Origin: Escherichia coli
GTDB lineage: Bacteria; Pseudomonadota; Gammaproteobacteria; Enterobacterales; Enterobacteriaceae
Assembly (NCBI RefSeq): GCF_003018255.1
Contig: NZ_CP027440.1
DNA length: 64,000 nucleotides
Direction: 5' to 3' (one strand)
Shown: piece after piece, positions 6,642-55,642 of the stretch
Numbering within the stretch: the stretch's first letter is position 1
How the letters are laid out: each line of letters starts with the position of its first letter
Notes under the pieces: model-generated
What the model saw: the letters and a program-made list of their open reading frames with translations, nothing else
Databases searched by the model: none
What the model was told of the DNA's origin: nothing
Translations under genes and position numbers: made by a program

Positions 6642-6788
6642 ATGGTGAAGAAGACAATTGCAGCGATCTTTTCTGTTCTGGTGCTTTCAACAGTATTAAC
6701 TGCCTGCAACACCACGCGTGGCGTTGGTGAAGACATTTCTGATGGCGGTAACGCGATTTCTGGCGCAGCAACGAAAGCGCAGCAGTAA
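6642..6788 (+). CDS. ecnB: Entericidin B small lipoprotein
   Basis: 48-codon [51 protein letters not shown] with RBS aggaag; below ORF-track cutoff. Confidence 0.85.
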
Positions 6789-6796
6789 GCAATAAC

Positions 6797-6832
6797 GGTA
6801 CGACAGCTGTGTCGTGCCGTTTGTTTTTTTTG
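6797..6832 (+). terminator. Rho-independent terminator after ecnB
   Basis: 9-bp stem (6797..6805/6810..6818) followed by long T-tract. Confidence 0.75.
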
Positions 6833-6900
6833 CGATAGTCACAAAGGTAATAGTTGAAATTCCCCTGCCACCTGGCAAAATATCCGTTCAACCATCAGCT

Positions 6901-6945
6901 TTGCAGGACGACCTGCAAACGCCTCTTTTCACCGGGGACGGCCCC
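6901..6945 (+). promoter_or_regulatory. Guanidine-II riboswitch (mini-ykkC motif) in the gdx leader
   Basis: Two short hairpins with ACGR loops: gcaggACGAcctgc (6903..6916) and ggggACGGcccc (6934..6945), 18 nt before the gdx start. Confidence 0.8.
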
Positions 6946-6963
6946 AATTCTCCGGAGCCTGAT

Positions 6964-7281
6964 ATGTCCTGGATTATCTTAGTTATTGCTGGTCTGCTGG
7001 AAGTGGTATGGGCCGTTGGCCTGAAATATACCCACGGCTTTAGTCGTTTGACGCCAAGTGTTATTACTGTGACGGCGATGATTGTCAGTATGGCGCTACT
7101 TGCCTGGGCGATGAAATCGTTACCAGTAGGGACGGCTTATGCCGTGTGGACGGGTATTGGCGCAGTCGGCGCGGCCATCACCGGCATTGTGCTGCTCGGC
7201 GAGTCCGCTAACCCGATGCGCCTGGCGAGTCTGGCGTTAATCGTATTGGGGATTATTGGTCTGAAACTCAGCACTCACTAA
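6964..7281 (+). CDS. gdx: SMR-family guanidinium exporter Gdx (SugE)
   Basis: ORF track frame; start at internal ATG 6964 ([22 protein letters not shown]), 105 aa. Confidence 0.93.
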
Positions 7282-7815
7282 CTAACTACCGGGCTGCTGT
7301 ACCCAAATAAACTTACTGACATCAAACCCTTCCCGGGTCGCGACTGCCAGCATCTCCTGTTTCACTTCGTCAGAAATGGTTGGCGTGCGGGAGAGTATCC
7401 ACAGGTAGTCGCGGTCCGGACCGCAAACCAGCGCATGGCGGTATTCCCGATCGAGTGCAATAACGTTATAACCGCCATAGAAAGGACCAAAGAATGACAC
7501 TTTCAGCGCAGCGCGAGTTGGTGCGCCGGTAAAGTACGCTTTCCCTTCACTCTGCTGCCACATTTCTCTGTCAGGGTTATAGCCTTTATTAATGACATTC
7601 AGGCCGCCGTCATCACGCAGGCTGTATGTTGCGGTGACTTTTTCCAGTCCACGTTCAAAACGGTGATCAAAACGGGCAATCTCATACCAGGTACCGAGAT
7701 AGCGTTTAGCATCGAAATTATTCACTACGGTCACGCCACGGGGCGGCGTAGGAGAACTGCAGGCAACGACCAGAAATGCAGCTGTCGCTGCGGCAACGAG
7801 AGGGAGCAGGCGCAT
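7282..7815 (-). CDS. blc: Outer-membrane lipocalin Blc
   Basis: ORF track 177 aa; MRLLPLVAAATAAFLVVACSS lipoprotein signal; recognised as Blc. Confidence 0.93.
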   Translation of the reverse strand: MRLLPLVAAATAAFLVVACSSPTPPRGVTVVNNFDAKRYLGTWYEIARFDHRFERGLEKVTATYSLRDDGGLNVINKGYNPDREMWQQSEGKAYFTGAPTRAALKVSFFGPFYGGYNVIALDREYRHALVCGPDRDYLWILSRTPTISDEVKQEMLAVATREGFDVSKFIWVQQPGS

Positions 7816-22465: not shown

Positions 22466-22541
<76 letters not shown>

Positions 22542-22698: not shown

Positions 22699-22774
<76 letters not shown>

Positions 22775-22809: not shown

Positions 22810-22885
<76 letters not shown>

Positions 22886-54919: not shown

Positions 54920-55228
54920 AGATACCTCCTCGACGGCTGACTTTGTGTGCTCTCCTCTTGTGGTGATCTTCTGATTTAATTTTAATCAATGATAAAGAAG
55001 TGGATGGTGACCATTTCTGATGCAGTTGTTCAAAAAAACACCATGATGAAGTGTGATGAACTTCAAATCAGCGTGTTAGTACGATTTGGTGAAGGATGAG
55101 ATTTATTTGTCGGCTGGCCTTGAGTTTAGCGGGGTATGTCAGTACTATAACGCGTCATTTTTCAGCCGACCTTTAACACGTTCCTTGCCTCCCCGGGATT
55201 CGGCTGACCCAGACAGGAGGCTGAATAA

Positions 55229-55642
<414 letters not shown>

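Follow-up and report, generated by a model that had tools for sequence, protein, structure and literature searches.

The window analysed here is a 64,000-nucleotide stretch of the Escherichia coli chromosome. The portion of interest carries the gene order epmB-efp-ecnA-ecnB-gdx(sugE)-blc-ampC, in which blc resides downstream of gdx on the opposite strand, and this region is matched in 5424 of 5426 complete E. coli genomes. A preliminary description, produced from the sequence alone, placed a guanidine-II (mini-ykkC) riboswitch in the leader of gdx at positions 6901-6945. The identity that it gave for the downstream gene holds, since the product belongs to the SugE/Gdx equivalog family NF008512 (193.5 bits versus a cut-off of 126), and the K-12 record labels gdx 'guanidinium exporter'. 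The features recorded between the upstream neighbour and the exporter gene are listed below in window coordinates.

6642-6788: ecnB, the upstream neighbour, with its stop codon at 6786-6788 (open reading frames, NCBIfam)
6794-6831 (+): intrinsic terminator of ecnB, a 12-bp stem followed by a T-run just past the ecnB stop codon (terminator scan)
6854-6881 (+): predicted sigma-70 promoter of gdx, 9 of 12 consensus matches with a TG element (consensus scan)
6900-6919 (+): P1 hairpin of the guanidine-II aptamer, an 8-bp stem (6900-6907/6912-6919) with the loop ACGA at 6908-6911
6920-6933 (+): linker L1/2 between P1 and P2, 14 nt and pyrimidine-rich, CGCCUCUUUUCACC
6934-6945 (+): P2 hairpin, a 4-bp GGGG/CCCC stem with the loop ACGG at 6938-6941
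6946-6953 (+): spacer between P2 and the Shine-Dalgarno (SD) sequence, AAUUCUCC, the site of the natural SNPs T6948A and C6950T
6954-6957 (+): gdx SD sequence GGAG, read directly, with the ATG 6 nt downstream
6964-7281 (+): gdx (sugE) coding sequence, 105 amino acids, an SMR-family guanidinium exporter (NCBIfam NF008512)

The ecnB terminator is the upstream boundary of the gdx transcription unit. Beyond it, the predicted promoter consists of a -35 element (TTGAAA, 6854-6859), a 16-nt spacer and an extended -10 element (TGgCAAAAT) that ends at 6881. Its hexamers are kept in Citrobacter and plasmid leaders and the spacer between them diverges. This arrangement suggests a dedicated gdx transcript, with a predicted start near 6886-6890 and a leader of approximately 75 nt.

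The preliminary description also anticipated that annotation based on open reading frames would miss the element, and the interval between ecnB and gdx indeed carries no annotated feature in either the PGAP RefSeq records or the K-12 MG1655 record. A GTG-initiated open reading frame of 155 amino acids (6814-7281, +) extends gdx upstream across the entire riboswitch. Likewise, several public 'SugE' calls of 139-155 amino acids (for example, the protein records P0045, P0039, P0086 and P0091) start upstream and read through the leader, and some of these appear frameshifted near the true start. Confirmation of the element is therefore useful, because RefSeq annotation of E. coli, including that of K-12, lacks the riboswitch and some sugE calls run through it.

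Architecture and family assignment of the gdx leader RNA

The preliminary description rested on two hairpins that carry ACGR tetraloops and GG/CC pairs next to the loops. Both are present as it had stated. P1 reads TTTGCAGG-ACGA-CCTGCAAA, with 8 base pairs of which two G-C pairs adjoin the loop, and this fold appears in the minimum-free-energy (MFE) structure. P2 reads GGGG-ACGG-CCCC at 6934-6945, such that each hairpin presents an ACGR tetraloop closed by two G-C pairs (..AGG-ACGA-CCU.. and GGGG-ACGG-CCCC). The hairpins are joined by the 14-nt linker CGCCTCTTTTCACC at 6920-6933. For comparison, the linker between guanidine-II hairpins is variable in sequence and usually at least 13 nt long (PMC5486947). 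A spacer, AATTCTCC, follows P2, and the SD sequence begins 8 nt past the end of this hairpin, with the gdx start codon at 6964-6966. The claim that both hairpins lie upstream of the ribosome binding site at 6954-6957 is thus borne out, and the element occupies the location expected of a guanidine-II riboswitch: the 5ʹ leader of a SugE/Gdx exporter gene, with P2 directly upstream of the SD sequence.

The check that had been proposed, a covariance-model scan with the Rfam family for mini-ykkC, gave the same answer. The whole window was searched with cmscan against Rfam 15 at gathering thresholds, and a full-length match to RF01068 (Guanidine-II, mini-ykkC) was obtained at 6900-6946 (+), covering model positions 1-48 of 48 with a score of 50.4 bits (E value 5.2e-7; gathering score 32). 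Each end of the interval originally proposed, 6901-6945, falls within one base of this match. RF01068 was the sole match at this leader, where the same search returned no hits for guanidine-I, -III or -IV. Elsewhere in the window, a full-length match to the RpsF leader (RF02893, 110.1 bits) was recorded at 55165-55249 (+), which is a known autoregulatory leader of the rpsF operon. Three tandem tRNA-Gly(GCC) genes with identical Rfam alignments were also found at 22466-22541, 22699-22774 and 22810-22885 (+), and these presumably correspond to the E. coli glyV-glyX-glyY cluster.

Stem-loops of this kind could arise by chance in GC-rich sequence, or could serve as a protein operator with no RNA sensing. 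In GC-rich genomes, the bare loop-word pattern does often occur by chance. When species genomes were scanned with GGACGRCC-N(8-38)-GGACGRCC, at least 120 loci were returned, mostly in high-GC actinobacterial and other genomes; among the matches listed, approximately 7 of 127 carry real stems around both loops and five (L028, L071, L101, L102 and L104, scored with RF01068) are family members. Because so few of these matches have true stems, the pattern is too loose when used alone, and ACGR loop words by themselves are not diagnostic in GC-rich genomes; the assignment depends on the stems and the context. For the window, the same pattern occurs once, against 0.01 occurrences expected from dinucleotide-preserving shuffles (n = 100, of which one contained any two-loop match). 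This low expectation and a full-length covariance-model match well above threshold argue against chance, as do the retention of the hairpins while their flanks diverge, the covariation of P1 and published biochemistry on an identical RNA. We therefore assign a negligible probability to a chance origin or a protein operator, both of which are effectively refuted by the published binding data, the covariance-model score and the covariation. The same evidence upholds the original proposal that the element is a cis-regulatory RNA and not a protein operator. [quoted passage not shown]

One family member recovered in the species-genome scan, from an Afipia sp. metagenome-assembled genome (L028:714-800; guanidine-II match of 37.4 bits), is followed by a perfect hairpin, CAUCUC-CUGG-GAGAUG, that encloses GGAG. 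A third GGACGG-containing segment, GUCGGGACGGUCGC, also lies downstream of this match. The additional hairpin and segment may represent another expression-platform design or an extra loop.

A further possibility is that P1 and the U-rich stretch beyond it (CGCCUCUUUU) form an intrinsic terminator or attenuator. Our scan for terminator-like structures does flag 6900-6919, with the tail CGCCTCTTTT. However, the four U residues start 6 nt past the P1 stem, and the U tract is absent from the leaders of Enterobacter, Cedecea and Kluyvera (CGCAUCUCACACC, CUUAUCGCACUC) despite the presence of P1 in each. The scan reported three sites against 0.9 expected; the remaining two both fall, overlapping each other, on the genuine ecnB terminator, and the guanidine-II class has been described as translational (PMC5558903, PMC12186494). 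The attenuator explanation is very improbable and was rejected, as the U-run is neither adjacent to the stem nor conserved.

Correspondence with the published E. coli element

The interval from the ecnB stop codon to the gdx start codon is identical to that of K-12 MG1655 save for one base in the T-run of the terminator; the aptamer and leader are identical, and no difference from the K-12 sugE/gdx guanidine-II riboswitch or from its ecnB-gdx-blc-ampC context was found. The other difference outside the riboswitch is an extra 4-nt repeat (ACTA/CTAA) at 7277-7285, at the convergent gdx/blc junction. Owing to this repeat, gdx and blc abut in the window, whereas the K-12 pair overlaps by 4 nt. Strain JNE23-011 has its gdx/blc junction arranged as in the window.

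The guanidine-II class was reportedly first validated by Sherlock et al. in 2017, using reporter assays and in-line probing. In-line probing of the E. coli RNA in that study is cited in PMC9094411 and PMC7544219. Structural work has employed the RNA found in the window. The 'E. coli P1_8bp' crystal RNA, UUUGCAGGACGACCUG(BrC)AAA, corresponds exactly to window positions 6900-6919 and was crystallised with guanidine (PDB 5NDI; PMC5486947). A 49-nt E. coli sugE aptamer was studied by NMR and SAXS, which gave a Kd of 130 uM, new G-C pairs upon ligand addition, and a stronger site at the ACGA loop of P1 (PMC9300104). The linker of that construct is stated to be 13 nt, compared with the 14 nt present here. 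For a 47-mer, single-molecule FRET revealed an intramolecular kissing state that depends on both ligand and Mg2+ (PMC9094411). A review names E. coli, Salmonella and Klebsiella as carriers of guanidine-II riboswitches (PMC12186494), and the SD sequence GGAG is marked in Fig. 1 of another report (PMC13064478).

The guanidine-I (ykkC), guanidine-III (mini-ykkC-III) and guanidine-IV (mepA) riboswitches respond to the same ligand, function as ON switches and have overlapping regulons that include Gdx/SugE exporters and guanidine carboxylase. Their folds are unrelated to that of guanidine-II. The guanidine-I aptamer is large, built from three helices and accompanied by a terminator; guanidine-III folds as an H-type pseudoknot, and guanidine-IV controls transcription through kissing loops.

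The proposal made for this locus is thus correct, and the element is already known in atomic detail, since the identical RNA has crystal, NMR, single-molecule FRET and in vivo reports. As a discovery it adds nothing, because this exact RNA is a textbook example, with a crystal structure, NMR data and single-molecule data.

Conservation among orthologous leaders and within E. coli

Orthologous leaders were gathered through homologues of the Gdx protein, a choice that is unbiased with respect to RNA structure. The set comprises E. albertii, Citrobacter sedlakii, C. amalonaticus, two Enterobacter, Kluyvera, two Cedecea and the plasmid blaCMY-blc-sugE module, and it reaches only approximately 88% Gdx identity and perhaps three to four independent lineages. 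Within this range, all ten leaders exceed the RF01068 threshold; the orthologues score 34.7-47.2 bits and the copy in the window scores highest. In every leader, the P2 loop motif keeps a position of exactly -28 relative to the ATG, and all orthologues retain the SD sequence GGAG. The flanks diverge around the conserved hairpins, and the linker likewise varies in sequence between the two retained stems.

Compensatory changes occur at three of the eight P1 base pairs (U-A to C-G, G-C to A-U and A-U to G-C). In the P1 alignment, 95% of cells are paired, versus 37-58% when the 3ʹ partners are slid, and the observed covariation score was reached by none of 500 shuffles. P2 is intact in nine of the ten leaders and, apart from this one break, is invariant among the orthologues, so it is uninformative on covariation. 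The lone exception is an E. albertii isolate (GCA_027565775.1, L124:637-683, GGGUACGGCCCC) with a single G>U substitution at window position 6937, the G that closes the P2 loop and adjoins the ligand pocket. This isolate also carries a G-U wobble in P1, and its leader scores 34.7 bits against the threshold of 32. Its Gdx protein is 102 amino acids long, and an insert of approximately 180 bp that resembles a REP element lies between ecnB and the gdx promoter. In E. albertii B156, P2 is intact (the extended call P0045 reads ..IGDGPNSS..).

The plasmid pNDM10505 bears an intact guanidine-II riboswitch (L003:1514-1558, RF01068 score 47.2 bits) within the blaCMY-blc-sugE module, which we take to be of Citrobacter origin. 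The sugE region is matched in approximately 680 plasmid records at 60-80% identity. P1 and P2 of the plasmid riboswitch are identical in sequence to those of the chromosomal E. coli copy, and the overall architecture is alike. However, the plasmid linker is shorter by 1 nt (CGCUUCUUUCACC), its spacer and SD context (UUGUUCUGGAG) are unlike those of E. coli, and the flanks are approximately 79% identical. The modelled probability that P1 and P2 both form is 0.62 for the plasmid leader versus 0.09 for E. coli.

Of 5426 complete E. coli genomes, 5423 contain a 70-nt segment spanning the riboswitch, and in 3154 records that segment is identical to the window. Six sampled variants revealed polymorphisms in the linker (C6923G) and in the spacer between P2 and the SD sequence (T6948A and C6950T), and no SNPs in P1, P2 or the SD sequence were seen among these sampled variants. 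C6923G occurs in O157:H7 EDL933, and three of the remaining four variant genomes sampled carry it too. With the 70-base riboswitch query, megablast returned nothing for approximately 1,050 genomes, an outcome that would fit a combination of C6923G and C6950T, which leaves no exact 28-mer.

Candidate OFF states and deletions that remove P2

In the best explanation for this leader, each ACGR tetraloop and its closing G-C pairs form a pocket for guanidinium. With guanidinium bound in the presence of Mg2+, the C and G residues of the two loops pair to create a P1-P2 kissing-loop complex, which would favour a leader conformation in which the SD sequence (6954-6957) and the start codon (6964) are accessible. 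Gdx would then be made and guanidinium exported, making the element an ON switch. In the OFF state, the weak 4-bp P2 would compete with an alternative pairing in which its 5ʹ strand and ACGG loop pair with the GCC that follows the SD sequence, the AUG and codons 2-3, and its 3ʹ CC with the GG of the SD sequence. Ligand-driven kissing would extract P2 from this sequestering structure. Competition between P2 and the SD/start region is the reading of the OFF state that we favour, and we do so tentatively, as a plausible account that falls somewhat short of probable. On this exact sequence, ligand binding to P1 (PMC5486947), binding by the aptamer (PMC9300104) and P1-P2 kissing in cis (PMC9094411) have been shown, and the coupling of kissing to translation is only 'proposed' (PMC9300104, PMC5558903, PMC12186494, PMC9094411). 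The constructs in all of the published biophysical work span the 47-49-nt aptamer and end short of the expression platform.

Three candidate OFF-state pairings were modelled: a linker that acts as an anti-SD, a helix between the P2 5ʹ strand and the SD region, and a larger alternative structure. The first of these holds that the linker between P1 and P2 pairs with GGAG, and that kissing withdraws the linker to free the SD sequence. This is the model proposed for the class and is drawn for E. coli in two reports (PMC9300104 Fig. 1A, PMC9094411 Fig. 1A). For P. aeruginosa, the SD sequence is described as pairing both with the linker and with P1 at its 5ʹ end (PMC5558903). The linker examined here does contain CUCU, which is able to pair with GGAG by using one G-U pair. 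However, the resulting duplex reaches only -3.5 kcal/mol in E. coli, which is weaker than the mean of -5.7 obtained with shuffled linkers, and it exceeds the shuffles by at most about one standard deviation in all ten orthologues. The linker is also a polymorphic site in E. coli (C6923G). We regard an anti-SD function for the linker as rather unlikely, and the deletions described below bear on it further.

For the second candidate, the P2 5ʹ strand CACCGGGGA and UCUCCGG, which overlaps the SD sequence, form a duplex of -11.7 to -12.2 kcal/mol in E. coli versus -7.1 +/- 2.3 for shuffles. The helix is also strong in E. albertii. As a conserved mechanism, this simple helix (CCGGGG with CUCCGG) was rejected, given that it is at control level in Citrobacter, Enterobacter, Kluyvera and Cedecea.

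The larger alternative structure corresponds to the competition that we favour. In the MFE prediction for the free leader, alternative pairing replaces P2 in most orthologues, and in the E. coli ensemble the alternative structure is approximately 1.5 kcal/mol more stable than the state in which P1 and P2 are formed. When P1 and P2 are locked in secondary-structure models, which cannot represent the kissing complex itself, the cost of opening the SD sequence is lowered in nine of ten leaders (for example, from 5.0 to 4.1 kcal/mol in E. coli and from 7.1 to 3.2 kcal/mol in Kluyvera). The switch effect in E. coli (0.87 kcal/mol) is not unusual, since 15% of controls with a shuffled downstream sequence attain it. 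Relative to such shuffles it is unusual in only three to four of the ten orthologues (fractions 0.01-0.03), which are not independent of each other. The segments that participate in the OFF pairing are constrained for other reasons, as parts of P2, the SD sequence and the Ser/Ala-Trp codons, and a covariation test of this pairing is therefore impossible. Neither the linker anti-SD nor the pairing of P2 with the SD/start region is clearly supported by the comparative and shuffle tests.

A local hairpin is also predicted at 6951-6973 (+), UCCGG.GC / GU.CCUGGA, with a free energy of about -5.6 kcal/mol even when P2 is formed. In it, codons 2-3 pair with the G residues of the SD sequence and with that of the AUG; coding and SD function account for the conservation of these sequences.

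Deletions that remove P2 provide a different view of the OFF state. The Cs+-resistant laboratory mutant ZX-1 carries a 20-bp deletion that makes gdx constitutive, with its mRNA up by a log2FC of 6.08, n = 1 (PMC13064478). The deleted sequence, whose reverse complement is CCGGGGACGGCCCCAATTCT, maps to window positions 6932-6951. Exposure of the parent strain to 10 mM guanidinium increases its tolerance of Cs+, an effect that the authors credit to the induction of Gdx (PMC13064478). The mutant retains P1, all of the linker except its last two bases (6920-6931 are kept), and the SD sequence. Because ZX-1 is strongly ON while keeping these parts, the repressing element is easier to place in the deleted P2 region. 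This observation also weighs against the linker as an anti-SD: gdx is up approximately 68-fold although most of the linker and the SD sequence are present, and the anti-SD model would more naturally predict that the loss of P2 locks the leader OFF. The modelled cost of opening the SD sequence is 4.95 kcal/mol for the wild type, 3.1 for ZX-1 and 4.0-4.1 for the natural deletions described below.

The size of the change in ZX-1 raises the possibility that control is exerted largely through mRNA abundance. By this account, gdx mRNA left untranslated in the OFF state would either be terminated early by Rho or be broken down by an enzyme such as RNase E, a loss that the bound ligand would prevent. 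Coupling to Rho or RNase E is frequent among translational riboswitches of E. coli. Guanidine-III riboswitches, as cited in PMC12186494 and PMC9094411, are reported to shield their mRNA from RNase E, and a log2FC of 6.08 is large for a purely translational effect. However, the RNA-seq experiment with ZX-1 is a single replicate in which the compared strains carried different plasmids (PMC13064478), and no rut or RNase E site was identified at the leader. We consider control through mRNA abundance a genuine possibility, if less than an even one; it adds to the translational model and does not exclude it. The approximately 68-fold change, from one replicate, suggests that control is visible at the mRNA level via coupling to Rho or RNase E.

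Clean excisions of P2 were also encountered in nature. Traced from a megablast anomaly, they are present in five of 5426 complete E. coli genomes, which represent three lineages and are all human urine isolates from China or Taiwan. The deletions are as follows.

EC488, NZ_CP109874.1 (L132): 16-bp deletion, window 6930-6945
2020N21-110, NZ_CM125671.1 (L138), and two derivative assemblies: 15-bp deletion, window 6931-6945
EC5502, NZ_CP092647.1 (L139): 14-bp deletion, window 6932-6945

Each of these alleles keeps P1, most of the linker, the spacer and the SD sequence. The boundaries differ, which argues for independent events, and an assembly artefact is made less likely by the recurrence of the 15-bp deletion in three assemblies. 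The natural alleles may, like ZX-1, express gdx constitutively.

These natural and laboratory deletions of P2 are ready-made alleles for the step that links kissing to the ribosome binding site, which is still 'proposed'. A bolder reading, which we advance as speculation and hold to be doubtful, is that P2 serves as both sensor and repressor in Escherichia and its relatives, such that its loss would cause constitutive gdx expression, largely at the mRNA level, and the excisions in urine isolates would be selected gain-of-expression alleles. If this is true, the EC488, 2020N21-110 and EC5502 alleles were perhaps selected by guanidino compounds or cationic biocides.
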